The notes beneath the pieces were generated by a model. The model searched no databases. It saw only the letters and a program-made list of their open reading frames with translations, and was not told the DNA's origin. From an uncultured candidate division Zixibacteria bacterium (GTDB lineage Bacteria > Zixibacteria > MSB-5A5 > UBA10806): 64,000 nucleotides of DNA. The translations under genes and the position numbers were made by a program. The DNA lies in assembly GCA_963801605.1 (NCBI GenBank), contig CAWDFP010000006.1:1312001-1376000 (forward strand), in the 5' to 3' direction. Numbering within the stretch: position 1 is the stretch's first letter; each line of letters opens with the position of its first letter. This document shows positions 6,150-24,530 of the stretch, in pieces.

Positions 6150-6215
6150 TGTTTCTCCTTTTGATTAAATGCTGCGATTTTGATCTCATATCTTACTGCG
6201 ATTCCCGAATCTGAT

Positions 6216-6440: not shown

Positions 6441-6483
6441 TTATTTCCAAATTGACCTCCTTGACAGTTGGGTAGACCCAACC

Positions 6484-6798
6484 CTATTTGCCGCTGTTAT
6501 AATTCATTGGTCTTGATGTTTTTGCCTTTGGCTGTTCCAGTATGGTCTCAATAGCCGAAAGCCTGGCAACTACCTCATTTTTGAAATCGAAGAGATCGCC
6601 CTTGGTGGAAAACCGCTCATTGATTGTGGCCTCAAGGCGGGCCAGACGAATATCGAGCTCGGCCACATAATGTTCCTCGGCCTTGGTGGCAAGCCCGACG
6701 CGAAGGCCGGTATAAGCGGCATAGTATCCGGATAACGCCGCAGCTACAGCCATGGCAAAGCTTATCAGGTATTTCACAAGCGGTTCTTTGGGAAACAT
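6484..6798 (-). CDS. Membrane-anchored coiled-coil protein
   Basis: N-terminal hydrophobic YLISFAMAVAAALSGYYAAY followed by heptad-like LDIRLARLE..RLSAIETIL; GGGAG RBS. Confidence 0.65.
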   Translation of the reverse strand: MFPKEPLVKYLISFAMAVAAALSGYYAAYTGLRVGLATKAEEHYVAELDIRLARLEATINERFSTKGDLFDFKNEVVARLSAIETILEQPKAKTSRPMNYNSGK

Positions 6799-6810: not shown

Positions 6811-7524
6811 TTACTCGTCTTTGATAAGAAGGCATTCACGGCCGCCGAATAGCCCAACGGCTGTGCGTCGATCTGATTCAGTCACCGACCTGATTTCAGC
6901 GCAACTCACCCGGATAACTTTCTTAATATCTGCCGAAAGCTTGTCGGTGATATAGGTGCCTCTAACCGATCCTTTGTAGACCAGCGATGTTTCCAATACC
7001 TGCGAAATACCGCCGTAAATGAAATGGGGCGAGTCGGGGCCAGCGCCAGGATCATGTGGACATCGCCGGATATCCTCGCCGCAGATTGAGCATTCGGGAA
7101 CGGTGTAGATAAATGAAATCGAACACTCTTTTAAAATGCCTGAATCGATCTTAAGAAGCAGTTCGTCGCTTCCCTCGGCTCTTGGCCAATAGAAGTAGCT
7201 CTTAAGCCAGAGAATCTCGCCGCCCTCTTCCAGCTCAGCGTGAAAGGTGCGCGCCAACGGAGTTTCGGAACGGTTATGGCCAACGAGCACCGGGGTATCC
7301 GCAATCAGCTCGCAGAGTTTTGACAGGTCCTCCCGACGAAATCGTCCTCCATGCGAATTGATCATATCGTTGACCACATACATGGCTCGGATATTGACAT
7401 TTTCCGCAGTAGCCGGCTTGGGCGGTTTTATGATGCTGTTGATTTTGTCAATCAGGGCAGCCCGGCGATCTTCCGGATCACCAAGTGATAAACTGCCGAT
7501 TAGCGTTTCAGTAATCTTTTCCAA
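6811..7524 (-). CDS. Phage prohead (maturation) protease
   Basis: PVLVGH, KIDSGILKECSISF and CSICG..CPH motifs; likely start is TTG at 7524 after AGGAGG, not 7620. Confidence 0.8.
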   Translation of the reverse strand: MEKITETLIGSLSLGDPEDRRAALIDKINSIIKPPKPATAENVNIRAMYVVNDMINSHGGRFRREDLSKLCELIADTPVLVGHNRSETPLARTFHAELEEGGEILWLKSYFYWPRAEGSDELLLKIDSGILKECSISFIYTVPECSICGEDIRRCPHDPGAGPDSPHFIYGGISQVLETSLVYKGSVRGTYITDKLSADIKKVIRVSCAEIRSVTESDRRTAVGLFGGRECLLIKDE

Positions 7525-7553
7525 TTTTCCTCCTTCCACCAAAAAGCATTTAT

Positions 7554-7603
7554 AAATCAAAATGCACTTTGAACGCGTTTTAGAGTCGCTATAAGAGCGT
7601 GGA
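7554..7603 (-). promoter_or_regulatory. Conserved upstream element of the head operon (copy 1)
   Basis: TCCACGCTCTTA-N10-AAAACGCGTTCAAAGTGCATTTTGATTT; both blocks identical to 22337-22385. Confidence 0.8.
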
Positions 7604-7821
7604 AAGGTAGGGGGGAACAATCCTTTGACGGAGAGAGGACGATCGTTCGGTTTTTATGAAAATCGTCTACGAGAGTACAAAATAATTTTTTTGACAGGAT
7701 TATTTGAATGTTAGAACAAACATGGCTGTAAACATAATCCTATGCAGAGTATTTCATTATCTGCAACTGGAATATTTACTCGATTAGCTTATATAGAAGT
7801 TTAGGGCTGGTTTTAAAATTA

Positions 7822-7887
7822 TAAATCGTTGATATTACGGCATTTGCATTTTCTTTAAAAAGAAAACCCGAAGGCATGGATATTGCA
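7822..7887 (+). promoter_or_regulatory. Sigma54-type promoter with upstream IHF site
   Basis: AGGCAT-GGATA-TTGCA at 7872-7887 (GG-N10-GC); 7822-7834 reads TATCAA-CGAT-TTA on the minus strand, matching WATCAANNNNTTR. Confidence 0.6.
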
Positions 7888-7897
7888 ATTAATTACA

Positions 7898-8040
7898 ACC
7901 GATGAGCAATTCCGCAATTAAGACCTGCCTCCTGACCGCTGCTTAGCGTGTTTTGCGCCAGTCCCTTATGGGGCGGAGCAATCCGCACCACCTCGAAGAC
8001 CGGCTTACCCCCCCCTCCTTAAGACCGGTCTTCACTTTTT
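7898..8040 (+). ncRNA. Candidate small RNA 1
   Basis: Lies between the sigma54 motif and a plus-oriented terminator (GAAGACCGG...CCGGTCTTC-ACTTTTT, 7995-8040) with a C-rich CCTCCT loop; internal GCGGA-GCAA-TCCGC hairpin. Confidence 0.5.
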
Positions 8041-8079
8041 ATATGATTTGCGAGTGATGTTTAACTCTGTTTAGTGCTA

Positions 8080-8301
8080 TCAAGCCGGTGGTAGTTTTGA
8101 ACCCCAAAACGGCACTTTCAAGATGGGAGCGAGTATGCAACCATTGATGATCCCCAATGTCAACGGAAGTAATCCGAATATCGCTATAATCCATCCGCCC
8201 GTACCGTGGATAACGCTGATTCCAAGGATAATCAGGACCAAGCCAACCACTATTCGCAATCCCCTTCCAAATGCAGTGGCCATGAATCGTGCTAAACCCA
8301 T
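8080..8301 (-). CDS. DUF2892/YgaP-like small membrane protein
   Basis: GRGLRIVVG...GLLPLTLGIINGC two-TM pattern. Confidence 0.75.
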   Translation of the reverse strand: MGLARFMATAFGRGLRIVVGLVLIILGISVIHGTGGWIIAIFGLLPLTLGIINGCILAPILKVPFWGSKLPPA

Positions 8302-8440
8302 CTGGTTCTCCTTTTTTTCATGGTTTGAATAATATCTATGTTGTCCAACGATCTTTCAGGGTCATCAAGTTTCCGCTGGCGAGACCTATCAGGCATATCA
8401 AAGCGATTCGCGGAATCAATCATTGTTGTGGTTACAGGTC

Positions 8441-8743
8441 TCAAATTCTACTAATTCTAACTAAGTCTATAAGCGTATCTCCCGCTAGGCAAAAGACTGC
8501 CTGAGCTGGACTCAATTTGGCCGAAATCCGCACTCGCAACCCCTCTTGCTGGAACGATTCCGGTAAGATCGTAAAACCATACCGATTGCCATCATCCATG
8601 GCAATTCCCCAGCATCCGCCTTCAAGGCCGCTGTAAACAATCGAGCCATTCCCGGTAATGAGATTCGCCCCCTGGTCGCTGCATCCACTAACCAGAACAA
8701 AACAAATGATTCCCAGCCCAATCGCGAAAATTAATTTCCCCAT
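8441..8743 (-). CDS. Small lipoprotein, paralog of 31500-31787
   Basis: Lipobox LVSGC; EGGCWGI..D.G.RY..LP..F...GLRVR motif. Confidence 0.75.
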   Translation of the reverse strand: MGKLIFAIGLGIICFVLVSGCSDQGANLITGNGSIVYSGLEGGCWGIAMDDGNRYGFTILPESFQQEGLRVRISAKLSPAQAVFCLAGDTLIDLVRISRI

Positions 8744-8868
8744 ATTGTCCTCAACTTGATCAGCCGCGAAAATTATAACTATGCAAAACGAATAAATACC
8801 CGCTGGAAATTTACCATCTTTCAGCCAATTGTCAATCAGATTGCATAAAAATCAATAGCTATTGCAGG

Positions 8869-8895
8869 GTAGTGTCGGGTCCTCGAACCCGACAC
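8869..8895 (+). repeat. GTAG-type REP-like palindrome
   Basis: GTA-GTGTCGGGT-CCTCGA-ACCCGACAC. Confidence 0.55.
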
Positions 8896-9088
8896 AAATA
8901 AACATTGGCGGTTGGTTTCAAGACATAACGGTCCCCCGGATATTTTTCACTTAACAAAACTAATAAATTATTCGTATATTAATAATCTCGCGGCGGTCCT
9001 CATCCTGGTTTAACCAATTCAGGCTTTTATTTCAATTTTTGTTGGATTTGGATTGCAATTTTACGGGCGTTGTTGAACAGGTAATACG

Positions 9089-10333
9089 ATGATTAAAGGT
9101 CAGATAAAAGAATATCTCGCTCATATACGGATGTTTTCCAAAAACGCCCGCTGGTTTTTATTCGCGTCGTTTTTTATGGGGTTCGGCTATTCCATCGTCT
9201 GGTTGCTTTTCAATCTTTATCTAAAACAACTTGGATACCAGGAAGGCACTATCGGCACTATCCTGTCGGCGTCATCTTTGGGGACAGTATTGATCGCCAT
9301 ACCGGCGGCGATAGTAGTGGATCATGTGAGGGTCAAACGAGTTTTGCTTCTGGCAACGGCTTTGAGCTCGTCGTCGTTTATTATGATGGCGCTTTCCAGC
9401 AGCGTTTGGCCGCTGCGCTTTTTCTCCGGCTTTTCGGGAGCGATGTTCACCGTGCATTCCGTGGCGATCTCACCATTTTTTATGCGCAATTCATCACCGC
9501 AGGAACGCTCTCATCTGTTCGGAGTTGATATGGCGATGGAGACCTTGTCGGGCTTCTTCGGCACTTTTATCGGAGGTTTCATTCCGAAATATCTGCTGTT
9601 GCAGGGAGTCTCGCTGCTTCATGGCTATCGCTTTACGATCATCGGCGGTGTAACTCTGGCATTGTGCTCGATTATTTTTTATGCAATGATAAAGTCAGAC
9701 AAACCGGCCCGCACAGGACGACTTAAGTTATCGGAATATTTCGGCTCGCGAGACTGGAAGACCATCATTAAGCTGGTTACTCCGCATTTTCTGGTTGGCA
9801 TGGGCGCTGGACTGGTGATACCGTTTCTGAATCTGTACTTTTTCGATCGCTTTCACTTGCAGTCCGATCAAATCGGACGAATCTTTTCGTTCGGATCACT
9901 ATTTACCGCCGTGGGGTTTCTGCTGGGACCAGTGCTGGCCAAACGAATCGGGCTGATCAAGACTGTCGTGGTTACCCAGTTTCTATCGATTCCGTTTTTC
10001 CTGATTTTGGCTTTCTCGCACAATCTGGCGCTCTCGATTGTCGGTTTCCTTTTCCGGGGATGCTTGATGAACCTGGCTTGGCCGATGTACAATAATTTCG
10101 CCATGGAGATGGTGCCTGAGGATCAGCAGGCTGGAACCAATTCGGTTTTGTCGCTGGCCTGGAGCGCCTCCTGGATGGTCTCGGCTAATATCGGCGGACA
10201 TATCATTCAGAACTACGGCTTTACTGTGGTGATGGTAGTTACTGTGGCGCTGTATCTGACATCTACCACTTTTGCCTGGATGCTGTTCCGTCACAAGAAA
10301 ATGATGGGGCGGGCAACCGCGCCTCTTAAATAG
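9089..10333 (+). CDS. MFS transporter
   Basis: 414 aa, about 12 hydrophobic segments, motif-A-like VDHVRVKR and LAKRIGLIK. Confidence 0.9.
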   Translation: MIKGQIKEYLAHIRMFSKNARWFLFASFFMGFGYSIVWLLFNLYLKQLGYQEGTIGTILSASSLGTVLIAIPAAIVVDHVRVKRVLLLATALSSSSFIMMALSSSVWPLRFFSGFSGAMFTVHSVAISPFFMRNSSPQERSHLFGVDMAMETLSGFFGTFIGGFIPKYLLLQGVSLLHGYRFTIIGGVTLALCSIIFYAMIKSDKPARTGRLKLSEYFGSRDWKTIIKLVTPHFLVGMGAGLVIPFLNLYFFDRFHLQSDQIGRIFSFGSLFTAVGFLLGPVLAKRIGLIKTVVVTQFLSIPFFLILAFSHNLALSIVGFLFRGCLMNLAWPMYNNFAMEMVPEDQQAGTNSVLSLAWSASWMVSANIGGHIIQNYGFTVVMVVTVALYLTSTTFAWMLFRHKKMMGRATAPLK

Positions 10334-10608
10334 CTTGATATTTCCGATATAGCGATCGGAAAGGGGATCAAGACAAGCATTATTGATGTGATCTTTTTGG
10401 GATCAATAATACGGTCATGGAATATGCTTTAGATAACCCCCTGAAACCTTATTTCATTTTCAAGAGTATATTAATTAAATGGGAAAAATAAACCCACAAT
10501 ATCGAGTCGCCCCCTTCAGGGCGGCTCAAGTTCTTTATGCAATCCTCTTCAATTTTGGCATATCAGTTAGGATACAAACGGTTTGATATCATAGAAATCA
10601 GGTGGCCT

Positions 10609-11533
10609 TTGAGCCAATTAAATCAAGTCGAGGAAGTAGAACAAATAAATAGCGAGCTATTAAAGAGCAATATCGCCGCGTATACGCGCCGAGCCGGGCG
10701 CGAAGCATCTGGCAGCTGGTAAACTCGATGGTTCCTTTTGCGTTGCTATGGGTTGCGGCAACTATGCCCTGCAGTACTCATTCTGGCTGGCATTGCCGGT
10801 AACACTTCTGGCCAGCGGCTTTTTGGTGCGGATCTTTATAATTTTTCACGATTGCGGGCATCAGTCATTTTTCAGGTCGCGCAAAGCCAACGACTTCTGG
10901 GGGCGAATCACAGGAGTGATAACATTTACACCCTACCACTACTGGAGCATAAATCACGCCAAGCATCACGAAACGTCGGGCAATCTCGATCAACGCGGCT
11001 TTGGAGATGTCTGGACCATGACAGTCGCCGAGTATAACCGTGCCCCTCTCAAGTTGCGCCTCAAGTACCGGCTGTTCCGCCATCCGTTGGTAATGCTTCT
11101 TCTGGGACCGCTCTTTATTTCGCTCATTACCAACCGGATCGCCAAGGGTAAGCCGGATAGACGGGAGATAATCAGTGTCTATGGCACCGACCTGGTCATC
11201 ATAGCAATCGGGACCGCGTTTAGCCTGATCATGGGGCTGAAATCCTATCTCATCATTCAAGCGCTGACATTGCTGGTCGGCCTGGTCGGCGGGATCTGGC
11301 TGTTCTATGTCCAGCATCAGTTTGAAGGTGTTTACTGGGCCCGCGAAGGCGAGTGGGATTTTATCGCTGCGTCTCTAAAGGGAGGTTCATTCTACAAACT
11401 TCCGAAATTGCTCAACTGGTTTACCGGAAACATCGGGTACCATCATGTGCATCATTTGATGACCCGAATCCCCAACTACAATCTGAGCAGATCAAGTAAG
11501 ACCAACGTATGGCGTTATCATCATTGCCGATAA
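10609..11533 (+). pseudogene. Fatty acid desaturase, frameshifted at the 5' end and truncated at the 3' end
   Basis: His boxes HDCGH, HAKHH, HHVHH; N-terminus (SIWQLVNS) in other frames; family-like sequence stops after RIPNYNL at ~11490. Confidence 0.75.
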
Positions 11534-11963
11534 TCCTGAATATGATGCCATGCACCAGGAAATCCAGGGGCTGGCGGCCGCGAAAATAATCCCCGATTTG
11601 AGGTTGCCTATTATAGTATAACCGTCACCGAGAAAATAGCTGTGCGAGGTAAAAATTACAAAGAACAGAACAAGAATGATCCCAATCGCAAGAAAGATGA
11701 CCCTTGACTGTTTTATTGATAATGATTCGACTAAGTTATTAAGAGCCTGACCAACCTTTTTCTCTACATTAGGGATACAAAGGGCAAATAGAATGAATAA
11801 AAAGAAAAGCCTTATCGAAATTGGGAAAATCCTTACGGAATCTAGACCCCCACAGCAGCCATTGAGGGTTAAATGAGGCTATTACAGATATTATCGCCAG
11901 GACTAAAATAATTATATTTATCCTTATAGCGTTATTCGAAAATTCTGTATAATCGGGCTTCAT
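11481..11963 (-). pseudogene. 5' fragment of a polytopic membrane protein, frameshifted and truncated
   Basis: Frames join as MKPDY..LLWG.. / ..FTSHSYFLGDGY.. / ..QPLDFLVHGIIF..WSYLICS and then run into the desaturase. Confidence 0.5.
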
Positions 11964-12000
11964 TAGTATGAATATACAATCCGCTCATTGATTATTCCAA

Positions 12001-12030
12001 TTGCAATTATAATTTCTGTGCGCCTATAAT
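12001..12030 (+). promoter_or_regulatory. Sigma70-type promoter, probably giving a leaderless MTase mRNA
   Basis: TTGCAA-N18-TATAAT with ATG 7 nt downstream and no RBS. Confidence 0.55.
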
Positions 12031-12037
12031 TTCCCCG

Positions 12038-12985
12038 ATGAAATCGCGCGCCCCCAAAAACAGAACCATTTCGCTCTCAAATACCGACCGCAAGCGGTTA
12101 TCAAATAAATTGATTTGCCCCTATTATGCCGAAACGAAAATAATTCCGCTCAATTCGACTATCCTTGGCGATTACACGCAGATAGTCCCCTTTATGCCTC
12201 AATCAAGCGTTGATTTGATGATTCTCGATCCACCCTATAACCTAAATAAAACCTTCAACGGGAATTCCTTTAAGCGGCGCTCCGTAGATGATTATACAAG
12301 TTATCTAAAAGAAGTCCTGGAGGCATTGATCCCCCTGCTCAAACCCACCGCGACCGTTTATATCTGCGGGGATTGGCTGAGTTCGGCGTCAATCTTTGCG
12401 GCGGCGTCAGAGTTGCTTGTTGTCAGGAACCGCCTCACCTGGGAACGGGAGAAGGGGAGAGGCGCCTCCAAAAACTGGAAAAATTCGTCCGAGGATATCT
12501 GGTTTTGCACGGTGTCGGATAGATACACTTTCAATATCAAAGATGTAAAATTGCGCCGAAAGGTTCTTGCGCCTTATCGCTCTAATGATGGCGCGCCGAA
12601 AGACTGGAATGAAACCGCATCCGGCAACTTCCGCGATACGGCGCCGTCCAATATTTGGACCGATATTACAATCCCGTTTTGGTCGATGCCTGAAAACACC
12701 GATCATCCCACCCAAAAGAGCGAAAAGCTGATCGCCAGGCTAATTCTGGCATCGAGCAATCGCGGCGATCTCGTGTTCGATCCCTTTCTCGGGAGCGGAA
12801 CAACATCGGTAACAGCCAAAAAGCTTGGACGAAAATATCTTGGTATCGAAATCGAGAAGGAGTTCTGTCTCCTCGCGGAGAAACGGTTGGAATTGGCTGA
12901 CGGCGAACCTTCAATTCAAGGATATACATCAGGAATTTTCTGGGAACGCAATACGTATTCCGAACAGACTAATATAAAACGATAG
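12038..12985 (+). CDS. Site-specific DNA methyltransferase (N6-A/N4-C, beta class), orphan in this window
   Basis: DPPY precedes HPTQK and DPFLGSGTT. Confidence 0.92.
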   Translation: MKSRAPKNRTISLSNTDRKRLSNKLICPYYAETKIIPLNSTILGDYTQIVPFMPQSSVDLMILDPPYNLNKTFNGNSFKRRSVDDYTSYLKEVLEALIPLLKPTATVYICGDWLSSASIFAAASELLVVRNRLTWEREKGRGASKNWKNSSEDIWFCTVSDRYTFNIKDVKLRRKVLAPYRSNDGAPKDWNETASGNFRDTAPSNIWTDITIPFWSMPENTDHPTQKSEKLIARLILASSNRGDLVFDPFLGSGTTSVTAKKLGRKYLGIEIEKEFCLLAEKRLELADGEPSIQGYTSGIFWERNTYSEQTNIKR

Positions 12986-13026
12986 TATTAAATTACCTTT
13001 TCTGCGCTTTGATTATAAAAATAATA

Positions 13027-13056
13027 ATGGCGCCATGTCTTGCGACATCGCGCCAT
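13027..13056 (-). terminator. Probable intrinsic terminator
   Basis: ATGGCGCCATGTC-TTGC-GACATCGCGCCAT hairpin, T-rich tail on the minus strand. Confidence 0.55.
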
Positions 13057-13097
13057 CTGCTTTTCGACAGTCATTACTGCCGGATTCGCCCTAATGC

Positions 13098-13376
13098 TTA
13101 ATAACGGGAACGGCCCATATTGCTGCGGTTCTCGGTGCGTGGACGAGCCTCGCTGACATTAAGAGAGCGGCCATTAAGCTCTTTGCCGTTCAAACCGGCA
13201 ATAGCGGCTTCGCCTTCGGCCTTTGAGGACATTTCCACAAATCCGAAACCCTTGGAATCGCCACTGAACTTATCCTTGATAATATTGACTGATACGATCT
13301 GGCCGTGGGCTTCAAATGCCGTGCGAAGATCGCCTTCCGCTGTGTCGCGGGATAGATTGCCGATGTATAATTTCAT
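13098..13376 (-). CDS. RRM RNA-binding protein
   Basis: RNP2 LYIGNL and RNP1 KGFGFVEM. Confidence 0.95.
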   Translation of the reverse strand: MKLYIGNLSRDTAEGDLRTAFEAHGQIVSVNIIKDKFSGDSKGFGFVEMSSKAEGEAAIAGLNGKELNGRSLNVSEARPRTENRSNMGRSRY

Positions 13377-13772
13377 CGTTTCTCCTTTTTCTCGCTACTT
13401 GTTGCCCTGGGGGAGACTTTGGCAAGAATGAATGATTCATGCGCACAATCGCGCTTTTGTCTCCAGATTAATATTTTGACAAGGGCTGATAATTCAAGTC
13501 TTGAGAAAACTTAAGGCGGAGATATGTTTACATCGATTAGTGTAGCAAATAATTCCTCGAATGTCAATAAATATCGCGATATAACCTGTATCGTGTTGCT
13601 GTGATACCGTTTATGGTAATGTGATTTTTTTAAGATTTAACATATTCGGTTGGCAATTTTTTGTTTAATGCCTAAATATATGATTTTAATAAAATTTTAA
13701 TCCAATCGTTTTCATAAATAAATAAGCCCCTACCGTGAGATAGGGGCCTTAAATTTTGTATGTATTTCTGTA

Positions 13773-13982
13773 TTAATTTAGTCTGAGCACATTCTGGGCC
13801 TGAAGTCCCTTGGGGCCTTCAGCTAATTCAAATTGTACTTCCTCTCCCTCTGCGAGCGATTTAAAACCATCACCCTTGATCGATGTGTAGTGGACGAAGA
13901 TGTCTTGTTCGCTCTCATTTTGTCGAATGAACCCGTATCCCTTTTTACTGTTAAACCACTTAACTTTACCCACATTAGCCAA
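13773..13982 (-). CDS. cspA: Cold-shock protein
   Basis: GKVKWFN, KGYGFI, DIFVHY; TTG start after AGGAGG. Confidence 0.93.
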   Translation of the reverse strand: MANVGKVKWFNSKKGYGFIRQNESEQDIFVHYTSIKGDGFKSLAEGEEVQFELAEGPKGLQAQNVLRLN

Positions 13983-14180
13983 TAGGATACCTCCTTATCA
14001 AGAATTTCTTGGTTAATACTGTCAAAGATTCTCGAATTTCCCGGAGCATTGTCAAGTGACGGCATCATGCCAAAATACAATTATATAATATAGTAGATAA
14101 ATAGGTCAGTCAAGGGAAATCTGCATTTTGTTATAGTTTTTATTAGCATTGCCTCCCCCCCAAGTTTGCGCTTTTTTTTC

Positions 14181-14212
14181 AAATGAATCCCAAATGAACC
14201 GGAAATGATACC
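14181..14212 (+). promoter_or_regulatory. Three helically phased direct repeats
   Basis: AAATGA at 14181, 14192 and 14203 (11-bp period) upstream of the regulator pair. Confidence 0.5.
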
Positions 14213-14256
14213 TTTCGCCGCTCAAATCCGCCATCTATTAAGGCAAAAACGGAGGC

Positions 14257-14751
14257 GTGATGGCCAGAATTGATTATGTTGAACCTGAAGTCTTACAGTC
14301 ACTTATCTCGCTTGAAACGGCACCGGTTGATCCCCGGTTGAAAGCCGAAGTCGAAAAGGCTTTGGCACAGCTTCCAGAGCATCTGCAGGAACTTGTAATT
14401 GCCCGAATTTATCAGGGCAAGACCCTTAATCAGATTATGCGACTTAACAATCTTCCGCGGGAATTGGTCATTTCGGAACTCAAGGAAGCCATGCGCCAAC
14501 TTCGATTGCTCCTGGCCGATTTTGTTCGCAATCGTTGGAATATCGAAATAGGCCCGATTTGCAGGATCTGTGTTCATCCACAACGCGAAAATATCAATCG
14601 AATGCTCAGAAATAAACCGGATTCCCAATCCTGGGGATTATTTGGAAAACATTTGCGGCGCGAAATTGGAGAGAATATCGGTCCCCCGAGGGTTTTTATT
14701 ACTCATCTGAATCATATTGAAAGGAGTAGAAATGACTATGCGGGCAGATAA
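14257..14751 (+). CDS. Sigma70 region-4-like HTH protein fused to a CxxC...HxxH domain
   Basis: EVEKALAQLPEHLQELVIARIYQGKTLNQI..LKEAMRQLR; CRICVHPQR...HLNH; GGAGG RBS. Confidence 0.7.
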   Translation: MMARIDYVEPEVLQSLISLETAPVDPRLKAEVEKALAQLPEHLQELVIARIYQGKTLNQIMRLNNLPRELVISELKEAMRQLRLLLADFVRNRWNIEIGPICRICVHPQRENINRMLRNKPDSQSWGLFGKHLRREIGENIGPPRVFITHLNHIERSRNDYAGR

Positions 14752-14962
14752 GCATCACGTTCAAATCCGCCTATCGATGCAGACCAAAAAGGAACTCCGC
14801 GACGCCTCCAAACACTTGGAATTGACGGAATCGGATGTTATGCGAAGCGCCCTGTTTTTCGGATTGCCGATCGTGGTCGCTATGAACGAATTGCAGGGGG
14901 AATTGATAAAACGTCTGGTTAAGAAACTGAAGGGTGAGGCGCGAATTCACCGATCCGGCTGA
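14732..14962 (+). CDS. Ribbon-helix-helix-like small DNA-binding protein
   Basis: VQIRLSMQTKKELRDASKHLELTESDVMRSAL; AAGGAG before ATG 14732. Confidence 0.65.
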   Translation: MTMRADKHHVQIRLSMQTKKELRDASKHLELTESDVMRSALFFGLPIVVAMNELQGELIKRLVKKLKGEARIHRSG

Positions 14963-15519
14963 CACGCGAAATTATTGCGCCGGCCCGGTTCATTTCGTCT
15001 ATTGCCGCTGCCGAATCGCCCGCTTTGACCTCAACTCCCATGATAGCATCGGCAAGTAAAACGACCTTGAATCCGTTGGCAAGAGCGTCTAGTGTGGTGG
15101 CCTTGACGCAGTAATCTGTTGCCAGGCCGCCGATGAAAAGACGCTCCACGCCGGCGTCCCTCAACATTTTGGCCAATTTCGTTCGCTGGAAACCGGAATA
15201 AGCTTCTTTGTCCGGATCGCTGCCTTTTTTGATCTGAGTTGCTTTCCCGATTTTCAAGCCGGGATGCAACTGCGATCCTCTGGTTCCGGCTACGCAGTGC
15301 GACGGCCAAATGCCCCCCTGCTCTTTGAACGATATGTGGTTTGCGGGATGCCAATCCTGCGTGGCGTAGATATGTTTAAAATATGGCTACGAGAGCATTT
15401 AGGCTCTCTATTATCGAATCCCCTCCGGGAACCGGCAGGGCCCCGCCGGGACAAAAATCGTTTTGGACATCGACAATGACCAGCGCGTCCTTTTCCTTAT
15501 CGATTTTAATCTCATTCAT
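14919..15519 (-). CDS. pncA: Nicotinamidase/pyrazinamidase, one frameshift near 15390
   Basis: ALVIVDVQNDFCPGGAL, QDWHP, WPSHCV, KG..EAYSGF, GLATDYCV. Confidence 0.88.
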
Positions 15520-15717
15520 GTCATATTAAATTGCGTTCGCCCGAAAACTGTTCCCTCGATTTATCATTACGATAAGATAGGAGTATAATGGATTAATGAT
15601 ACATGTGGGATGCTCTGCAATTTCGATTGCAGATTCTATTCCGGGCCGATATATTTCCGGTAGGAATTTCGAACTATGAGAAATAATTTAAATAGATTCA
15701 AAAAGATGGAGCCGATA

Positions 15718-16893
15718 ATGAAAAAAGCAGCAATTCTAATGCTCGCTCTTTTGGCTTTGGTTCAAGTGGCGTCCGCAGTGGAGTTCACCGGTTCTTATGC
15801 CGATGTCAAAGCTCAGGCCATCACCCAGGGAAAGCCAATCCTGATCGATTTCTTCGCCGAATGGTGAAGCGCCTGCAAGCAGTTCGCTGGTGCAGTGAAC
15901 TCAAATGCCGAGATTCAAAAAGCGCTGGAACCGGTCATCCTTTACCGTGTGGATTGTGAAAAAGGCGCCGGTAGGGATTTGGCCAAAGAATTTAATATCA
16001 GGGCTTATCCCACATTTATCTTGGTTAATAAAGATGGGCAAATGCTGGATATTTGGCTGGGTTTCGAAAAGGCCAGTTTCATTAAAACTTTAGACGATGC
16101 CCGCACCGATCTTACCACAATCGAGGAGAAAAAGGCGCGTTATAAAGCCCTTCCCGATTTACGGTCGGCGGCAGTACTGGGCCGATATTCCTCGGCGATA
16201 GGCGAATATAAAGATGCGGTTAATTATTTTCGTAGGGCCTATGTGCTTTCAAGTGATACCAGGGCTGATTATGTTTTCGATATTTTTGAAAACACCGCCA
16301 GTGGCGCTAGAAAAAATATATTTACATACGACGATGTTTCCCAGGCAGCCGAGGCTATCATCAACGGACCGAAAAGAGATCCCTGGCAAGTCGTTCAGGT
16401 AATTACCGAGATGATCGGAATTGCTAAAAATCTCAATAAAACAGACGATGTCGCCAAGTATACTCAGGCCGGGCTTGACGCTACATCCGTAAGCGATGAT
16501 CCCGATATCAAAAACATGCACTCCGAGTTGATGGTTGAATTCGCATTATCTGTTAAGCATGATACCGCCACGGCAGTTGAATATAAAAAAGCGGCCATGC
16601 CGGATGGTTGGCAAACCGATGCCGGCAGGCTTAATGAATTTGCCTGGTGGTGTTTTGAGAATAAAACCAATCTTACCGAGGCCGAGCAACTTTCCCGCAA
16701 GTCAATCGAATTGGCCAAGCCGGGACGAGAAATATCGAATTGCTATGATACCTTAGCCGAAATTGTAAACGCTAAGGGCAATCCCAAAGAGGCGCTGGAA
16801 TTATCGAAGAAAGCCGTAACCGAGGATCCCTCGAATAAGTATTTCCCCACGCAGGTCGAACGGTTCCAAAAGGCCGTTACGCCATCGAAATAG
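15718..16893 (+). CDS. Exported thioredoxin-fold + TPR-like protein with probable selenocysteine (UxxC)
   Basis: Signal peptide; KPILIDFFAEW-TGA-SAC is in frame with the downstream ORF (cis-Pro motif AYPT). Confidence 0.85.
15882..15900 (+). promoter_or_regulatory. Bacterial SECIS-like hairpin
   Basis: GTTCGCT-GGTGC-AGTGAAC; loop starts with G about 21 nt after the UGA. Confidence 0.6.
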
Positions 16894-16911
16894 GATTTAT
16901 CTGATTGGTTT

Positions 16912-16941
16912 AAAGGCGGCCCGATTAGGCCGCCTTTTTTT
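16912..16941 (+). terminator. Intrinsic terminator
   Basis: AAAGGCGGCC-CGATTA-GGCCGCCTTTTTTT. Confidence 0.85.
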
Positions 16942-17046
16942 ATATTATGCCCCTGAATGAACGCTTTTTGAGTATTGAATCGATTACAGAAAAGGCCCCC
17001 TCTTTATTCTGGGCAGGCGTGGCGAATTTTTTGCGCCTCTCAATCT

Positions 17047-17589
17047 CTATTCTTTGGTTTGGCCTTCTTTGGCCATTCTTTTAATTTCCTTTTTTAAAGC
17101 TTTGGCGAAATTTTTGGCGGTGTTCTTAAATATTTGATTACCTTTAGTTGCCCAATCGCTGACCTCGGCGCTGAAATTTCCAGCAAAAATGGTATTATTA
17201 CTATCTGCCCTGTCTATAAGTCTCAAAGCTACTGTTAGCTTGGCGTTACCTACGCCAAAGCCGATAAAGAATCTGGCTACTCCACTGCCTCTCTTAAATT
17301 CTATAACGCTTCCATTGATTTCATAATCGACCTTATCGTCTTTGCTTATCATGGTAAAAATATCTTGAGTACTGAGTTGATAATCCAACTCAGTCTTTAG
17401 CATTTCTATTTCCTCGAGAGTGGGTTTTTTTTCGATATCCATATTAGCGGGTAATTCGTCTACGATACTGCCTATCGAACAAAATTTGGAAGCCTCAATT
17501 GGCGCTTGCAGGGGCTTTGTTATCACATAAGGTGTGCAGGATATAATAAAACAAAATACAACTGCGGCGCAGAATTTCGATATCGTCAT
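17047..17589 (-). CDS. Lipoprotein, DUF4410-like
   Basis: Lipobox IISC; GSGVARFFIGFGVG motif. Confidence 0.7.
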   Translation of the reverse strand: MTISKFCAAVVFCFIISCTPYVITKPLQAPIEASKFCSIGSIVDELPANMDIEKKPTLEEIEMLKTELDYQLSTQDIFTMISKDDKVDYEINGSVIEFKRGSGVARFFIGFGVGNAKLTVALRLIDRADSNNTIFAGNFSAEVSDWATKGNQIFKNTAKNFAKALKKEIKRMAKEGQTKE

Positions 17590-17630
17590 ACAATCCCTCC
17601 TTTAGATTGCGGTTCAAGATTTTACTTCAG

Positions 17631-18611
17631 CTAGAACATTGTGACAGCCCTTAGTTTCAAATCAAATATATAGCCATAGAATACTTCTGATTTGTGAGCG
17701 TTATTTCCTGATGAAACCGCCACTAAGTCCAAAGTAAAACCACAGTCGAGGCCCATTCTCTTTGAAAACATTTTTATTGCTCCGAATCCGAACATAAAGG
17801 CAAATTTGGAATTAGATTGACTATCGTTGATATTGCCGATCTGGCCCGTATTAATCTGTCTTACGGTGGCCTTCGTTGTGGTTGTATGCGTGATTATCCC
17901 TATTCCGCTCAATCCATACCACATACTCCTGGAATCCTGAATTCTGGAAAATGGCTGATGAAAATTGACAGCAGCCTCATAGCGCGTGGCATGAAAACCT
18001 AAATCCTCATTGAGAATTTGTATATTAGGATCATACGATATGAGATGCATCTTTTCGCTGATTCTCATTCCGGATCGTGAGACTATAAACTGCAAGGCTA
18101 CTTGATGACTCAATGCTAATCTAAAATCGCCTTCATAACCAACTCCGGATTTAATTCCGTCATAATAATCCCCCGCCGGGATGCTTAAATTGCCTCCAAT
18201 GGAAAATAAACCAACCCAGGACTTAGCCATCGCGGCTTTGTATTCGTTTGATTCGCGGGATACCCATTCTTCCTTCTGAGGCCTATAATACCCCTGCAGC
18301 ACTCTCGAGGTTACATCGCGTCCGCTTTGATCGGTTATTATTTTTATATCACTGAAGCTGACATTTATTTTTGACCCCTGATATTCAAGCAATACCGTTT
18401 TATAAAAATCGTTCACCTCGAATTTGACATCTTTATATTGCTCGCCGGACTTAAGTTCAAAAGTGGCAGTTTCGGAAGCTTGTATTAGGGAAACGGACGT
18501 TATTAACAATAAAATTAATGCAATTAAAACTCTAGGGGTAATTTTGGACGAAATTATCATTCGAACCTCCGCTGTTTTTCCCATTTTAAAATTGAACGAC
18601 TTGCGAGTCAA
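17631..18611 (-). CDS. Outer-membrane beta-barrel protein (start probably ~18560)
   Basis: Signal peptide, amphipathic strands, terminal Phe. Confidence 0.65.
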   Translation of the reverse strand: MTRKSFNFKMGKTAEVRMIISSKITPRVLIALILLLITSVSLIQASETATFELKSGEQYKDVKFEVNDFYKTVLLEYQGSKINVSFSDIKIITDQSGRDVTSRVLQGYYRPQKEEWVSRESNEYKAAMAKSWVGLFSIGGNLSIPAGDYYDGIKSGVGYEGDFRLALSHQVALQFIVSRSGMRISEKMHLISYDPNIQILNEDLGFHATRYEAAVNFHQPFSRIQDSRSMWYGLSGIGIITHTTTTKATVRQINTGQIGNINDSQSNSKFAFMFGFGAIKMFSKRMGLDCGFTLDLVAVSSGNNAHKSEVFYGYIFDLKLRAVTMF

Positions 18612-18798
18612 GTTAAATATGGAACCAATTCTGATAATCGAGACGTGTTTACCTCCCGATCGGGGGAAAGTATTATTGACATTTCTATAGAATCTATATT
18701 CATATTTATCCAGACTTTTATAGTCATGCTATGAAGAACGCAATAATAAACCGGGGCTTAATACAAACCCCGGTCATGTATTAGTATTGCATCTAAGA

Positions 18799-19359
18799 TT
18801 ATCTTTTTATCTTTTGAGTGGCTTGGCCGCTTACCAACGCATTTAACGTAATTCGTTCCTTTTTCACGGTAATGTCATGTTCGAGTGCAGTGACTCGAGA
18901 CCGAAGATTATTTACCTCGCGCCTGACCTCACGCTCGTGGATGGCTTTTTTAATTGCCAGGTCGATCTCATCGAGCTTAAAGGGTTTGAGAATATAATCG
19001 GAAGCTCCCATGCGAATCGCCCTAACGGATGAATCGAGAGTCGGAAATCCGGTCATCAGTATTGTTACTATATCAGGATTAATTTGGGTGATTTTCTCGA
19101 TCGTTTCGAGACCATCCATGCCCCGCATTTTCAAATCCACCAGCACAATGTCGCAGGGTGATTTTACCAACAACGAAATAGCATCCTCGCCGCTGCCCGC
19201 AGTTTGTACCTTATAATTTTCCCGTTTGAAATATTCATTAAGAAAATCAAGAACAAGATCGTCGTCATCGACAACCATCAGCGATGGTTTTTCAACATTT
19301 TCCACTCGCTGTTGATGTTCTATGGTATTTTTGGTTTTATAGGATGTATCTTGTGCCAT
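18799..19359 (-). CDS. Response regulator (receiver + coiled coil, no clear output domain)
   Basis: VVDDD, DLKM..MDG, MTG, GASDYILKPF. Confidence 0.9.
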   Translation of the reverse strand: MAQDTSYKTKNTIEHQQRVENVEKPSLMVVDDDDLVLDFLNEYFKRENYKVQTAGSGEDAISLLVKSPCDIVLVDLKMRGMDGLETIEKITQINPDIVTILMTGFPTLDSSVRAIRMGASDYILKPFKLDEIDLAIKKAIHEREVRREVNNLRSRVTALEHDITVKKERITLNALVSGQATQKIKR

Positions 19360-19742
19360 TTATCCCTCTTAAAAAAATGGTTTGACTGCCAGTCTGTCGC
19401 CTCTATTAAAGGCATCCATTAACATTATCGGAATATTTGACAAAAGATTTATGGGCTGAATTGAAAGTGACAGCCATCCTCGATCAAGGGGTAAATCGAT
19501 TATAAAGGTGTTTCCACGCTTAAAGTGACCACAAATAAACTTATATATGCCAGTTATGAGCATTTAATTAGACTTAGCTTTTTATGCATATCAAATAAAA
19601 TGAGTCTTTTAGAATGAAATTTGTTAAAAAAATAGGGCTGCGAATGTATCAATTCAACAGCCCTTATACTCAAAATACAATTATATTTTGTTCAGCGCCG
19701 CCAAGTATACTTGTAATTCCTGCTCCGACAGGCAAAAGTCAT

Positions 19743-21416
19743 TTATTTTATAACCATCATTTTTTTGGTTTCCGAAAAAGTGCCTGTCTCAATTCGATAG
19801 AAGTAGGTGCCTGATGGCTGATTGCCGGAGTTCCAGGTAATTTTGTGATAGCCCGCTTCCTGGTAGTTATCAACCAATACCTCTATGCGCCTGCCGGTAA
19901 TGTCATAAACTTCAATGCTAACGTGAGATTGCTCCGGAAGGCCATACGCAATAGTCGTTGTCCCATTAAAAGGATTTGGATAAGATTGTCCAAGAACATA
20001 ATCGGATGGCACAGTCTCGTACTCTTCATCCGTCTCATCTTCAAATTTCGACATAAAAACATTTCCCGCGCGGATTCTAAAATTGCGATTTGATCTGGCG
20101 TTGGCCATATTCCCGAAAGTATCGCGCACTGAAACCCTAACACGGCAAGTTCTCGACGATACATTTGGGACTATCCAATTATATCTATGAGGATCCCCCG
20201 ATGTCCAATCCGCGATCATCGTCCAAATAGTCCCTGCATCGATGCTGTATTCCAGTTTATAGGCCGCTACCCCAACGTTATCATTATCGGTCCATGTGAT
20301 GCTATAGGTATTAAATCCTCTTAAATTTTGGCCACCGTTGGGATTGATTAAGGTTAACGTAGGGATAGTATTATCCCTGATGGTGAAATTAGCATTTGAA
20401 AGATCGCTGCCGATAGCCCCAAAGGCGTCTCTGCATGAAATTCTTATCTTCGCGCTTATTGTGGGATTGGGGGGTACGGTCCAGGCAAAAGTATGAGGAT
20501 CCCCTGTTGTCCAATCGCGAATTATGAGCCAGGTGGCGCCTGAATCAGCCGAATATTCCAGTTTGTGAGAGGCAATCCCGCCGACTACATCGCTATCGGT
20601 CCAGATAATATTATGCGCAGAACCAATATCCCAAATTTCGCTTCCGTTAGGCGCGCCAACTGTAACCAGAGGATTATCGTTTTGCGAACTGGGAACAACA
20701 AAGGAATCCGGTCTGGACCACAGGCTTGAATCGCTTAGATCCCTGGCCATCACCCGACAATGCCAATAGTATTTTACGGCGCGATTTAAGCCCGTGTATG
20801 TTACCATTGCCAGTGAATCTATCAGGCTGTCTGCTGATATTGATGGGTTTGAAAAATTAGATGAGAAATCTAATGCGAATTGGTATTTGATTGGTAACGG
20901 TGCCCCCACCGTATCTGCCTTAAGCGTGGCCGACGCCTGCACTGAATCCATAACGGCCGGCCTTGGATTCGGAGTCATTAGTCCCCCCGCAAATTTCCTG
21001 ATTACATTTGATATTACCGAGACATTACCGGCCCGGTCATAAGTCTTAATGGCGAGATAGTAAGGCGCCCCGCGATTAAGCCCGGAGAATGTAAAGCTCT
21101 GAATTGAGCCCGCAGGAAGAGGAAGCGGTGGATTGGGGATACTTGGAGCCAATCCCCAATTTAATTCCGTAATAATAGTACTTGAGCATTTGATGATATA
21201 ATGATCGGCGGTCCCGTTATTCCCATCATCGCCTGGCGCGGTCCAATGAATAGTCATTTCTCCGGGGACAGTCTCGATTGACGCCGGCGAAAGAGTTATA
21301 TCATCTTTAAAAGCGGGTTGTAGATGTACGGATTGTACAGCATATAATGTTGAGAATTGCAGCCCCCATAATACAATAAAAACCATAAATATGGTTTTTC
21401 GCCTCGATAACGTCAT
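19743..21416 (-). CDS. Secreted Fn3/Ig-repeat protein with YPNPFN-type C-terminal sorting domain
   Basis: Signal peptide, WTAPGDDG Fn3, two PNG..I.W...YS.D.G..W repeats, QSYPNPFN...KKMMVIK. Confidence 0.85.
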   Translation of the reverse strand: MTLSRRKTIFMVFIVLWGLQFSTLYAVQSVHLQPAFKDDITLSPASIETVPGEMTIHWTAPGDDGNNGTADHYIIKCSSTIITELNWGLAPSIPNPPLPLPAGSIQSFTFSGLNRGAPYYLAIKTYDRAGNVSVISNVIRKFAGGLMTPNPRPAVMDSVQASATLKADTVGAPLPIKYQFALDFSSNFSNPSISADSLIDSLAMVTYTGLNRAVKYYWHCRVMARDLSDSSLWSRPDSFVVPSSQNDNPLVTVGAPNGSEIWDIGSAHNIIWTDSDVVGGIASHKLEYSADSGATWLIIRDWTTGDPHTFAWTVPPNPTISAKIRISCRDAFGAIGSDLSNANFTIRDNTIPTLTLINPNGGQNLRGFNTYSITWTDNDNVGVAAYKLEYSIDAGTIWTMIADWTSGDPHRYNWIVPNVSSRTCRVRVSVRDTFGNMANARSNRNFRIRAGNVFMSKFEDETDEEYETVPSDYVLGQSYPNPFNGTTTIAYGLPEQSHVSIEVYDITGRRIEVLVDNYQEAGYHKITWNSGNQPSGTYFYRIETGTFSETKKMMVIK

Positions 21417-22336
21417 TCATCCTCCTTGAACTAAACTTGTTGACGTCTTTACAGCCCGCTTTTCACCGTCAAACGGACTTTTTTATTTTGGCGATTATTT
21501 TATTAATTAGATCGTAGATATTTCTCTGGGAAATCGATGCGATCTAATTCAATTTAGTTTATTTCGTCGAAGTTGAATCCCTCATTCAACAATTGACGAA
21601 TTTGCTCAATAGGCTTCCTCCATATTCATCCATTTCGTAATTATCGAGCTCACAATCAAAATTAATGCCATGAATTTAGCTACGGCACAATAAACGACCG
21701 CCTTGTATCTGCATTGAACTCCTTATATTTAAGGACTTCAATACACCTTGGCTTTGGGCCAGCCCGCCTTTTGTCTTAAATTATTATTGTTACGAACTAG
21801 AGGATACTCAACACGAACTATTTGTACTATTTAAGAAGTCGCAGAAGAACCCTTAAAGCATCCCACCAATTACAACTTAACCGGCTCAGTCATATATCTC
21901 ACGGCCGGTCGCACGCCCCTTCTGAGAGCCTGCCTAACGCATATAGTGCATTAATCATCAGCTCGTCAAGAGTTATTTGTAACATTCCTAAAATATTGTT
22001 ACTAACACTTGTGTTACATAATTATCTATACTTATTTGGGATACACGGGATATTTTGAAGATTATTTTTATGCCGTAATCCTCTTAAAAAATTAAAAAAC
22101 TATTATATTTCCCGTTATAAAATGATTTGATCAGAATTTTCAATCGAAAGTCTTCGAACTTGGGCAATAAGTGTATCTAAAACCTTAGATCGATATTCAA
22201 ATATATAGGTGTCGACCGATTTATATGATTTTAGCCCTATTAAATTGAATGAAGATGCATCCGCCCTGAGTGAATAATCCAAGGTAGACTTCTAATTACA
22301 CACTCCTCTCTATAAACAGATATATCTAAAATTTTC

Positions 22337-22385
22337 TCCACGCTCTTAAATGTCCTCAAAACGCGTTCAAAGTGCATTTTGATTT
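22337..22385 (+). promoter_or_regulatory. Conserved upstream element of the packaging operon (copy 2)
   Basis: TCCACGCTCTTA-N9-AAAACGCGTTCAAAGTGCATTTTGATTT; both blocks identical to copy 1. Confidence 0.8.
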
Positions 22386-22429
22386 CCCAAGCCTATAAAA
22401 GTGAAGAGATGATGAAAGGAGAATCGTTA

Positions 22430-23710
22430 ATGTTTGGATTTAAGAAAATACCTAAGGTACCACAGGGTAATCTAGCTGCCAATGCCCGAATGATCAAAGC
22501 GCATCAAGCGCGTGAAAAGGCGGGATCGCCGTTAAAATCCGGATCTGCAACCATTTCTTTTCCCGCAGAATATGGTTTTGCGGAAAGGGTAACGCTTTAT
22601 CGATTTCTAAGAGAGAATATCCCAATTATAAGCGGCGCCATCTGGATTTGGTCCCGCCTCTGTGCCAGTCCAATGGAATTCCAGTTAAGCGGAGGCCCCA
22701 GCAAGCATAATATCGCTTTGCTCAAATCGCATTTAGACAAACTTAATACTCTGCTTTCGCCCAACGCTTACTATAAATCCGGCGGCCTGGACAGGCTTTG
22801 CGATCTCTTTTTCAGTTCCCTTTTTATCGATGGCGCCTTTGCTGGAAATATCGAGATCGATCAATCCGGAAAATTGGCCGGTTTTACTCCCTGCGATATT
22901 AGAAATTTATCTTTCGAATCTGATAATGGTCAAAACGGTTATCCCGGATGGAAAATATATCGCCAAATCGAGGGCAATCGGGAGCTTCTCGATCCCGCTA
23001 CTTTCATCTACATCCCTCTTGATGATGATGCTTGCGATCCTCGTGGCAAAAGCATATTGCAGTCGGTCGGTTTTGTCAGCCGGTTGGAACAAAAACTTCT
23101 CGACGATATGCAAAAATCGCAGGAAAAAGCCGGGTATAACAGGTTACATGTTCTTATTAAAAAACCCGAAAGGCGTTTAGGCGAAACCGAGCAAAATTAT
23201 ATCGATCGCGCTAACGGCTATTTCGATGATACCGTCACGCTTTTTTCCGGAATCAAACCATCAGATTCGGCAGTCACCTGGGATGATATCGAAATTAAGA
23301 CAATCGGGCCATCGTCGGGCGCGGGAAGCGCCAGCAACTCCTGGTATCTCTCGCATCGGGCGCTGGTCGAGGATATCTGCGCCGGTGTGCATCTCGATCC
23401 ATTCATGTTAGGCTATTCTTACTCATCGACCCAAACCTGGGCCAGGTTCAAATTCGAGCTTGTTCTACGTGAGATTATATCAGTCCAGAAGCAGGCGGCC
23501 AAATTTTTCGAATGGCTGGTCAACACTCATCTGGCCCTTGAGGGTTCAAGTTCGGCAGTATCTGTCAAATTCGATAACGATCGGGTTAATAGTGTTCTTG
23601 AAAAATACCGTGCCGAGCGTGAAGCCAGCGATCGGGTTATCGAGTTATTCAAGGCTGGCCTTCTTACCAGGGAAGAGGCTCGCGAAAAAATCAATGAAAG
23701 GATCGATTGA
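22430..23710 (+). CDS. Phage portal protein
   Basis: LYRFLRENIPIISGAI, SLFIDGAF, DPRGKSILQ, ICAGVHLDPFMLG, GLLTREEARE; ATG 22430 after AAGGAG; upstream of terminase. Confidence 0.8.
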   Translation: MFGFKKIPKVPQGNLAANARMIKAHQAREKAGSPLKSGSATISFPAEYGFAERVTLYRFLRENIPIISGAIWIWSRLCASPMEFQLSGGPSKHNIALLKSHLDKLNTLLSPNAYYKSGGLDRLCDLFFSSLFIDGAFAGNIEIDQSGKLAGFTPCDIRNLSFESDNGQNGYPGWKIYRQIEGNRELLDPATFIYIPLDDDACDPRGKSILQSVGFVSRLEQKLLDDMQKSQEKAGYNRLHVLIKKPERRLGETEQNYIDRANGYFDDTVTLFSGIKPSDSAVTWDDIEIKTIGPSSGAGSASNSWYLSHRALVEDICAGVHLDPFMLGYSYSSTQTWARFKFELVLREIISVQKQAAKFFEWLVNTHLALEGSSSAVSVKFDNDRVNSVLEKYRAEREASDRVIELFKAGLLTREEAREKINERID

Positions 23711-23712
23711 CC

Positions 23713-24048
23713 ATGCAGCCATCCTCATGCGCCATCTGCGATTCGCCATTGCGCTCCGAAATCGAAAAACTTGATTCCCAATGGAACGACATTCATACTG
23801 TTCAGTGGGCCCGTAAACAAGGACTAAATATCAGTCGTTTTTCGCTTGTAAAACATCGAACCAACCATTTGCAATCAGCGGCCCCCGGAAATAATGGCAA
23901 CGGCGGGAAAACACTTGATAATAAACCCGCAGAGATTGTCGTGCTTAAACCGTTAAAGTCTGCTATTAAGGAAATGGTACAACCATCGGAAAATAATATT
24001 CCGAAAACAAAACGTAAAAATAATGGCCAACGGCATTCCCGAAAATAG
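23713..24048 (+). CDS. CxxC...HxxxH Zn/HTH-like protein, candidate terminase small subunit N-terminal part
   Basis: CAICDSPLRSEIE...ISRFSLVKHRTNH; lies between portal and TerL. Confidence 0.55.
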   Translation: MQPSSCAICDSPLRSEIEKLDSQWNDIHTVQWARKQGLNISRFSLVKHRTNHLQSAAPGNNGNGGKTLDNKPAEIVVLKPLKSAIKEMVQPSENNIPKTKRKNNGQRHSRK

Positions 24049-24504: not shown

Positions 24505-24530
24505 CGCGGGCAGCCCGTTGGCATACCCTG

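Follow-up and report, generated by a model that had tools for sequence, protein, structure and literature searches.

Two gene transfer agents (GTAs) are the closest described parallels to the system treated here. For RcGTA of Rhodobacter capsulatus, whose genes lie at several loci, the factor GafA is described as binding the promoters of both the structural cluster and a separate lysis cassette (PMC6363796). For CcGTA of Caulobacter crescentus, GafY and GafZ are described as acting on a degenerate, activator-dependent core promoter and on about 18 accessory promoters, with a sigma-like helix-turn-helix factor and a near-palindromic site (PMC11150451). RNA parts of DNA-packaging systems are, as far as one published account goes, described for phi29-like phages only (PMC11476376). 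Here we analyse a window of 64,000 nucleotides (assembly GCA_963801605.1, contig CAWDFP010000006.1, positions 1,312,001 to 1,376,000) from an uncultured bacterium of the candidate division Zixibacteria, in which two copies of a short element stand upstream of a protease-capsid operon and of a portal-terminase operon. Both copies probably represent a late promoter devoted to a phage-head system that the host lineage inherits; the same element also heads a predicted lysin gene and six non-coding units predicted to yield self-pairing structured RNAs. Such a regulon may work like the GafA and GafYZ regulons of the alphaproteobacterial GTAs.

The initial annotation of the window had described a near-identical, oriented pair ahead of both operons, and its coordinates, spacers and distances to the start codons all proved to be exact. 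The 28-nucleotide cores at 7554-7581 (minus) and 22358-22385 (plus) form an inverted pair with 28/28 identity, which is the sole 100% pair among the 25 longest of 65 inverted repeats in the window, where 7e-8 exact 28-mer pairs are expected by chance. A left 12-mer, TCCACGCTCTTA, is located upstream of the core at a distance of 10 nt in copy 1 and of 9 nt in copy 2. Copy 1 is followed by a TTG start at 7524, 29 nt from the core, and copy 2 by an ATG start at 22430, 44 nt from the core. A further conserved block lies 3' of each core, beyond the coordinates first given for the element. The parts of both copies are as follows.

7592..7603, minus strand: left 12-mer of copy 1, common to close kin only
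7554..7581, minus strand: 28-bp core of copy 1, holding the conserved dyad GTTCA-N4-GCATT at 7574-7561
7534..7547, minus strand: downstream (-10-like) block of copy 1, degenerate and running into the ribosome-binding site; the whole site scores 32.1 bits
22337..22348, plus strand: left 12-mer of copy 2
22358..22385, plus strand: 28-bp core of copy 2, with the dyad at 22365-22378
22391..22405, plus strand: downstream (-10-like) block of copy 2

Upstream regions were compared at 30 portal loci. With 3 mismatches allowed, the 28-mer core is found in only 1 of 40 relatives, so that the motif family had to be found by position. What relatives conserve is above all a dyad, RTNCA-N4-GCATT, which reads ATGCA-N4-GCATT in the sister family. 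Also kept are a T-rich run and, 17-18 nt further downstream, a second block. The anatomy proposed at first, a left block plus core, is therefore corrected to dyad plus downstream block: the left 12-mer is exact in five of the nine copies in the genome, differs at 9 positions in the copy ahead of a peptidase gene, and is shared by close kin only, and the palindrome AACGCGTT, also taken for a conserved part, is broken in the nearest relative. Selection had been read from conserved blocks around a diverged spacer; since relatives vary at spacer and flanks, the 28/28 identity is mostly due to recent shared descent, whereas the dyad and the downstream block are indeed kept. The proposal that the motif ties both loci into one regulon gains from the comparison, as the motif heads portal and protease genes in relatives at fixed distance, with 30-38 nt from core to start for the protease and 45-60 nt for the portal gene, and it is still present ahead of the protease gene where the protease operon trails the portal operon in tandem. 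The bipartite pattern occurs at 37 places in 10 of 24 genomes of the order, versus 2 control hits. Families f5, f15 and f16 have their own motifs ahead of both operons, and lineage-specific motifs are present at both places in G095 (f5), in G049 and in four of five f16 genomes, and ahead of the portal gene in G149. Pairwise alignment gave no shared motif in G114, G118, G136, G140 and G148, and a search with a motif pattern in f5 genomes other than G095 was without result, four of the five being blank.

Promoters are characterised by a fixed spacing of two parts, by orientation, and by the distance to a ribosome-binding site. Because all three are fixed here, the element is read as a promoter, likely a dedicated late one, with the dyad in the -35 position and a -10-like block downstream. 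A sigma-70 promoter (TTGACA-N16/18-TATAAT) was found at neither copy in the window. For CcGTA, the GafZ palindrome is described as lying between -35 and -10, and GafY as binding far upstream together with IHF (PMC11150451), unlike the dyad described here, which is situated at -35 itself.

It had been predicted that the motif should reveal further modules elsewhere in the genome, and it does so with a lysin-like peptidase gene and six non-coding units. In the source genome (G000; 3.06 Mb, 87% complete), a scan detects nine core copies, eight exact and one with a single mismatch; there are zero further sites at two to six mismatches, the next ones appearing only at seven. A matrix built from 24 sites of relatives ranks the nine G000 sites on top, at 21.8-35.1 bits, with the next site at 16.2 bits and a maximum of 13.3 bits in the reversed genome. 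Three of the copies head coding units, i.e., the protease-capsid operon, the portal-terminase operon and, likewise in the nearest relative, a Peptidase_M15_4 gene (E 5e-17), whose product is a predicted lysin that would serve in cell bursting. The other six head non-coding units of about 265 nt amid ordinary host genes. A tail module, named beforehand among the hits that would support a regulon, was not found. Copies unrelated to phage-like genes had been named as the finding that would speak against a regulon, and six of the nine copies do adjoin housekeeping genes at non-orthologous sites; yet each of them precedes a structurally conserved unit and not a bare repeat. Viral contigs contain no match to the core and none to the 3' motif of the RNA, and a metagenome scan gave two matches, one a true homolog nearly identical to the copies of G001, the other due to chance. 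In comparison with the RcGTA/GafA system, the motif is short, bipartite and sharply conserved, the candidate factor is a 164-aa protein with sigma region-4 and zinc domains, long-tail genes were not found, and most copies head non-coding units; RNA genes are not named among the CcGTA regulon members in the account cited above (PMC11150451).

The non-coding units of G000 fall into two groups, with 86-94% identity within group 1 and about 75% between the groups. Each unit starts at the presumed transcription start with a purine run, which is the ribosome-binding site in the protease copy and is paired into the first hairpin in the units. Extra copies outside both operons number six in G000, seven in G002, six in G004, three in G008, two in G013, and one each in G005, G003 and G020; behind their own motifs, three are present in G095 and nine sites, one of them probably due to chance, in three f16 genomes. 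The units occupy non-orthologous sites beside unrelated housekeeping genes. That they encode small proteins is rejected in view of substitutions distributed flatly over codon positions (24/23/23 and 34/32/31) and of stops in group 2, single indels not being counted against coding because the assembly has many. An origin from retrons or other retroelements was rejected as well, no RVT_1 domain being found in G000 (87% complete). A search of 10 loci against 4227 Rfam families (E<=1) gave no relevant match, only nearby tRNAs and two hits below threshold.

Some single loci deserve mention. In two genera the ribosomal L17 gene is followed by a unit, but these units belong to different families and are oppositely oriented (L163 in G002 and L064 in G004). 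At one locus shared by G009 and G006 (L178 and L179), a compact RNA is present, but the genes upstream of it differ, those of G009 encoding a C5 methylase and Vsr, a pattern like that of an integration hotspot; the units L178, L179 and L133 neighbour genes with NFACT RNA-binding domains, which may be due to chance. The f16 genomes carry their own repeated non-coding element behind their own motif, less GC-rich and without paired palindromes (L224, L225, L228, L230, L231, L233 and L168). Upstream of L176, at G000 C6:1568128-1568212, there is a tandem partial duplicate of the upstream part of the unit, without the core.

The units are predicted to make folded RNA of no known family. Three parts make up the proposed core: a 5' hairpin whose apex is palindromic, a helix containing an insert that varies, and a helix B-B' around a second palindrome; B' can alternatively pair with a downstream segment C. 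Compensatory changes preserve the helices in five genomes: both partners are altered in 17 of 72 pairs when seven rows are aligned, and in 14 of 30 core pairs when 12 rows are, a number reached by 0 of 500 shuffles, with slid controls giving 1-4. Covariance models detect homologs in G001, G003, G006 and G009, some of only 139 nt; model R1 found nothing in five f9 genomes, and model R2 matched f1 genomes only, besides one weak match in f8 that does not show the architecture. Sequence-unrelated units of like plan, as judged by eye, are present in G004, G002 and G013. The units have two GC-rich palindromes. Perfect palindromes of at least 10 nt number 41 in 33 units versus 10.3 expected, and a palindrome of at least 8 nt occurs within the first 60 nt of 20 of 27 units and of 2 of 10 coding sites, against a background of 20%, related copies inflating these counts. 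An out-of-sample copy in G003, found with the 3' model from that end alone, is preceded at 175 nt by a variant of the motif, and its first hairpin contains a 12-nt palindrome; another newly found copy is situated where a contig ends.

In several respects the predicted RNAs of the units recall the prohead RNA (pRNA) of phi29, likewise a structured RNA of 120-270 nt tied to portal and terminase, with paired loops that could drive multimers (PMC11476376, PMC7357161). As described there, pRNA has two complementary, non-palindromic loops, is the product of a single phage gene and serves a phi29-type motor, whereas the units possess self-complementary palindromes, exist in zero to seven chromosomal copies beside a two-domain large terminase, and match no Rfam family. 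RNA dimers are reported to form commonly via palindromic loops (PMC7357161), so that RNAs with two such loops could chain. Possibly, although we regard this as doubtful, the RNAs form dimers or chains that have a function in the particle or its motor, and are neither passengers nor signals for host shut-off. By analogy with phi29 pRNA, a role at the portal would be the leading guess.

As for the protein that may read the dyad, a candidate is encoded between both operons, together with a small coupled gene.

14257..14751, plus strand: candidate activator of 164 aa with a sigma region-4 domain and a CxxC/His helical domain, present in 129 of 151 genomes
14717..14962, plus strand: small coupled gene, a candidate repressor, ribbon-helix-helix-like by eye

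Homologs of open reading frame (ORF) 14257 show identities of 23-38% across the class and in several genomes are encoded close to the capsid cluster. Since the motif turns over between families, a fast-changing reader is suggested. A fold search found nothing below E 0.001 beyond sigma region 4, and its C-terminal domain and the N-terminal part of the small-terminase-like protein are weakly alike (hhalign probability 27.6%, E 6.5e-4). That this co-inherited protein reads the dyad is plausible, with a chance that we put somewhat below even. Three short ATGA-type repeats spaced by about 11 nt precede ORF 14257 at window positions 14181-14212, and (G/A)TGA(T/A) repeats recur ahead of its homologs class-wide; they are likely an operator for the coupled ribbon-helix-helix-like protein. 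The region between the operons (7600-22300) is a regulator locus with MFS, isochorismatase-like and thioredoxin-TPR neighbours, and the same neighbourhood exists in G006 at about 67 kb from the portal gene. The sigma factors of G000 comprise one RpoD-like and one FliA-like protein as well as twelve hits to sigma region 2 of the extracytoplasmic-function type. The consensus for sigma-28 (FliA) is TAAA-N15-GCCGATAA; as a FliA promoter the element was rejected, GCAT occupying the place of TAAA and none of the nine sites being among the three strict matches in the genome. The FliA-like protein (G000 C5:19781-22505) is conserved at 74-86% and seems to be flagellar by context, with flhG-like and PilZ-like neighbours recognised by eye; flagellin was not found in G000 or G002 and is present in 3 of 3 other f1 genomes.

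The genes that the two window copies would control are listed below in operon order.

6811..7524, minus strand: prohead-protease-like, first gene of the left operon; the name follows from its position ahead of the capsid gene, and no family hit names it
6484..6798, minus strand: conserved 104-aa protein, in which one segment near the N-terminus is weakly hydrophobic
5727..6149, minus strand: virion structural protein (phrog_4588)
4563..5660, minus strand: major head protein (phrog_3922, E 4e-67; PF25209)
3109..4548, minus strand: 479-aa beta-propeller protein, short-tail nozzle being a weak lead
2741..3112, minus strand: conserved 123-aa protein
2026..2739, minus strand: Ig-like repeats akin to tail-protein domains and a conserved helical C-terminus; the frame breaks near the end in this assembly
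197..1908, minus strand: two secreted-looking proteins closing the left operon
22430..23710, plus strand: portal protein (phrog_3753, E 6e-29)
23707..24364, plus strand: small-terminase-like gene by position, two ORFs here and one in relatives
24465..25937, plus strand: large terminase, in which Walker A/B motifs and acidic motifs of the nuclease type are present

For the 479-aa protein a beta-propeller fold is predicted, and the top Foldseek match of its model is the portal-tail chain of LME-1 (E 1.3e-12, TM score 0.38), with sialidases scoring alike. This chain is reported to belong to a short-tail complex (PMC12407071); because VIA ranks lectins first, a nozzle identity is only a lead. No solved structural relative was found for the 237-aa protein. 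Of 10 genomes with the small-terminase-like gene, four show an N-terminal CxxC/His domain in its product and six do not, and in G118 (L076) and G095 (L083) the gene is located at the end of the capsid operon and not between portal and large terminase. At window positions 1-134 and upstream, the left operon ends with a 149-aa membrane protein conserved in four genomes, a holin candidate. Single-base frame breaks affect capsid-system and housekeeping genes of the window alike (1900-2100, 6150-6480, 24023, 24400-24530, 34920/35750 and 57285/58096) and are probably assembly indels.

Judged by its genes, the phage-head system is vertically inherited, and its intact genes are under selection. Portal matches are present in 139 of 151 class genomes, 134 of them single and five as two partial matches, and portal identity declines from 84 and 69% within the genus to 62-67% in the family, 41-52% in the order and mostly 35-49% in the class. 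The protease-like gene is found in 138 of these genomes, and two f6 genomes are without portal, protease and 14257 alike. In 14 comparisons, nonsynonymous divergence (pN) is 0.12-0.33 versus a saturated synonymous divergence (pS) of 0.72-0.87. The same gene set recurs at 20 loci from 17 genomes, often as a single tandem cluster, and, as in GTAs, head and packaging genes form a core cluster, while accessory loci are situated apart from it. Replication or integration genes were found neither among 54 window ORFs nor among the conserved families of the 20 loci. The conserved cluster of these loci contains no tube or tape-measure gene, and PF10145, the one model used, matches in 0 of 5 genomes, the control matching in 8 of 14. 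Membership in the GTAs is at most a possibility, since no long tail was found. A search mostly without subscription literature found no report on GTAs of Zixibacteria, on this promoter or on this RNA.

Dispersed intergenic hairpins, often between convergent genes, are typical of REP/REPIN repeats, which are associated with Y1 (RAYT-type) transposases, and one may ask whether the promoter is real and the promoter-plus-hairpin units are selfish mobile repeats of this kind, REP-associated cassettes with no role in the particle. The units are indeed multi-copy, situated at non-orthologous host loci and often in convergent gaps, vary from zero to seven per genome, and are 86-94% alike when recent; REP-like words flank five of six units and none of the three coding copies in G000, which has one Y1 transposase, far from the units, and, at 87% completeness, no reverse transcriptase. 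Unit ends are ragged in the alignment. Unlike REP/REPIN repeats, however, the units carry the promoter of the capsid operon and a covarying structure of 140-270 nt; compensatory change keeps their helices between genera, each unit with readable upstream DNA keeps the motif version of its own genome, in f1, f5 and f16 motifs unrelated to one another are followed by units of unrelated families, and among 61 neighbours scanned no transposase stands beside any unit, so that we consider this explanation improbable. It is quite improbable that the element is a pac-like signal for the start of packaging, perhaps coupled to transcription, the dispersed palindromic copies being entry points of the terminase into the chromosome. 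Such a role would agree with the dispersal of the copies, with palindromes that are strand-symmetric, with a strand test that did not separate RNA from DNA, with the weak likeness between 14257 and the small-terminase-like protein, and with the discrete packaging peaks reported for DsGTA (PMC11841831). A pac site, however, has no need to keep a fixed distance from the ribosome-binding sites of three genes or to recur within a tandem cluster, and the palindrome centres differ within one genome.

Antitermination has been considered as well, with element or units loading a complex that permits read-through, mostly antisense, into host genes while particles are being made. Of 32 units, six end in a word like the boxA of the genome's own rRNA operons, for which 0.0008 per unit are expected and which also matches the B. 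subtilis consensus (PMC13753749), a convergent gene faces 20 of 29 classifiable units, and the Caulobacter activator GafZ is described as having a sigma-like helix-turn-helix and a palindromic site between -35 and -10 (PMC11150451). In contrast to rRNA boxA, these words are placed at the 3' end of a short unit and not ahead of a long operon; 26 units are without them, the six come from two unit families, and an insertion would in any case do the least harm in a convergent gap, so that antitermination appears very improbable. Selfish spread, pac-like entry and antitermination are all compatible with promoter function. The perfect inverted pair in the window might finally suggest recombination sites inverting the 14.7-kb interval. 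Such a switch is extremely improbable, because no recombinase is present among the interval ORFs scanned and because relatives keep the motif whether their operons are joined in tandem or widely separated; moreover, there are seven further copies elsewhere, and either orientation would leave both operons with a core.

Several observations weigh against a late promoter that unites capsid genes, lysin and structured RNAs. The matrix ranking is not fully independent, because the training sites were picked with a pattern partly drawn from G000. The bipartite pattern has no match in 14 of the 24 genomes of the order, and in two sets of genomes, with two members in common, the upstream regions of portal and protease genes did better than shuffles in only 5 of 11 and in 3 of 10 cases. 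By eye, the recognition helix of the sigma region-4 domain of 14257 is devoid of the usual basic residues in families f1 and f2. Only 8 of the 151 class genomes carry the peptidase gene, which for this reason looks like a late recruit, and in this assembly the reading frame is broken in several genes of the system. As to the RNA, the 12 aligned rows represent only about five lineages, and G-U versus A-C counts of 2 versus 1 and 4 versus 4 did not distinguish RNA from DNA hairpins. The RNA copy number of zero to seven per genome strains a role at the portal, and, together with unit families that are unrelated in sequence, it is hard to square with an essential motor part.

In the most likely mechanism, the operon of 14257 would be de-repressed in a few cells, and an activator, for which 14257 is the candidate, would bind the dyad, whereby all dyad-bearing sites would be switched on. 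RNA polymerase would start just past the downstream block, and proheads, packaging motor, lysin where recruited, and structured RNAs would be produced together. In its boldest form, which we judge rather unlikely, the late promoter of a domesticated head system has been copied repeatedly over the chromosome for a new class of RNA with two self-complementary loops, and these RNAs polymerise and either help the capsid and its terminase motor to work or are their chosen cargo; prohead RNA would then have a first counterpart outside phi29-like phages, encoded by the host and in several copies.

For the Zixibacteria, an uncultured, class-wide capsid system gains a readable regulon with a defined promoter and a candidate activator, both open to reconstruction in a laboratory strain, and the motif provides a sequence handle for accessory genes that homology searches do not link to the capsid. 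How GTAs choose the start of packaging is described as an open question (PMC11841831), and the dispersed sites make this question and that of a packaging RNA testable. Whereas the promoter alone joins a known kind, families of structured RNA that are multi-copy and apparently co-regulated with the particle genes go beyond it and, if it is true that these RNAs are parts of the particle, would be categorically new.

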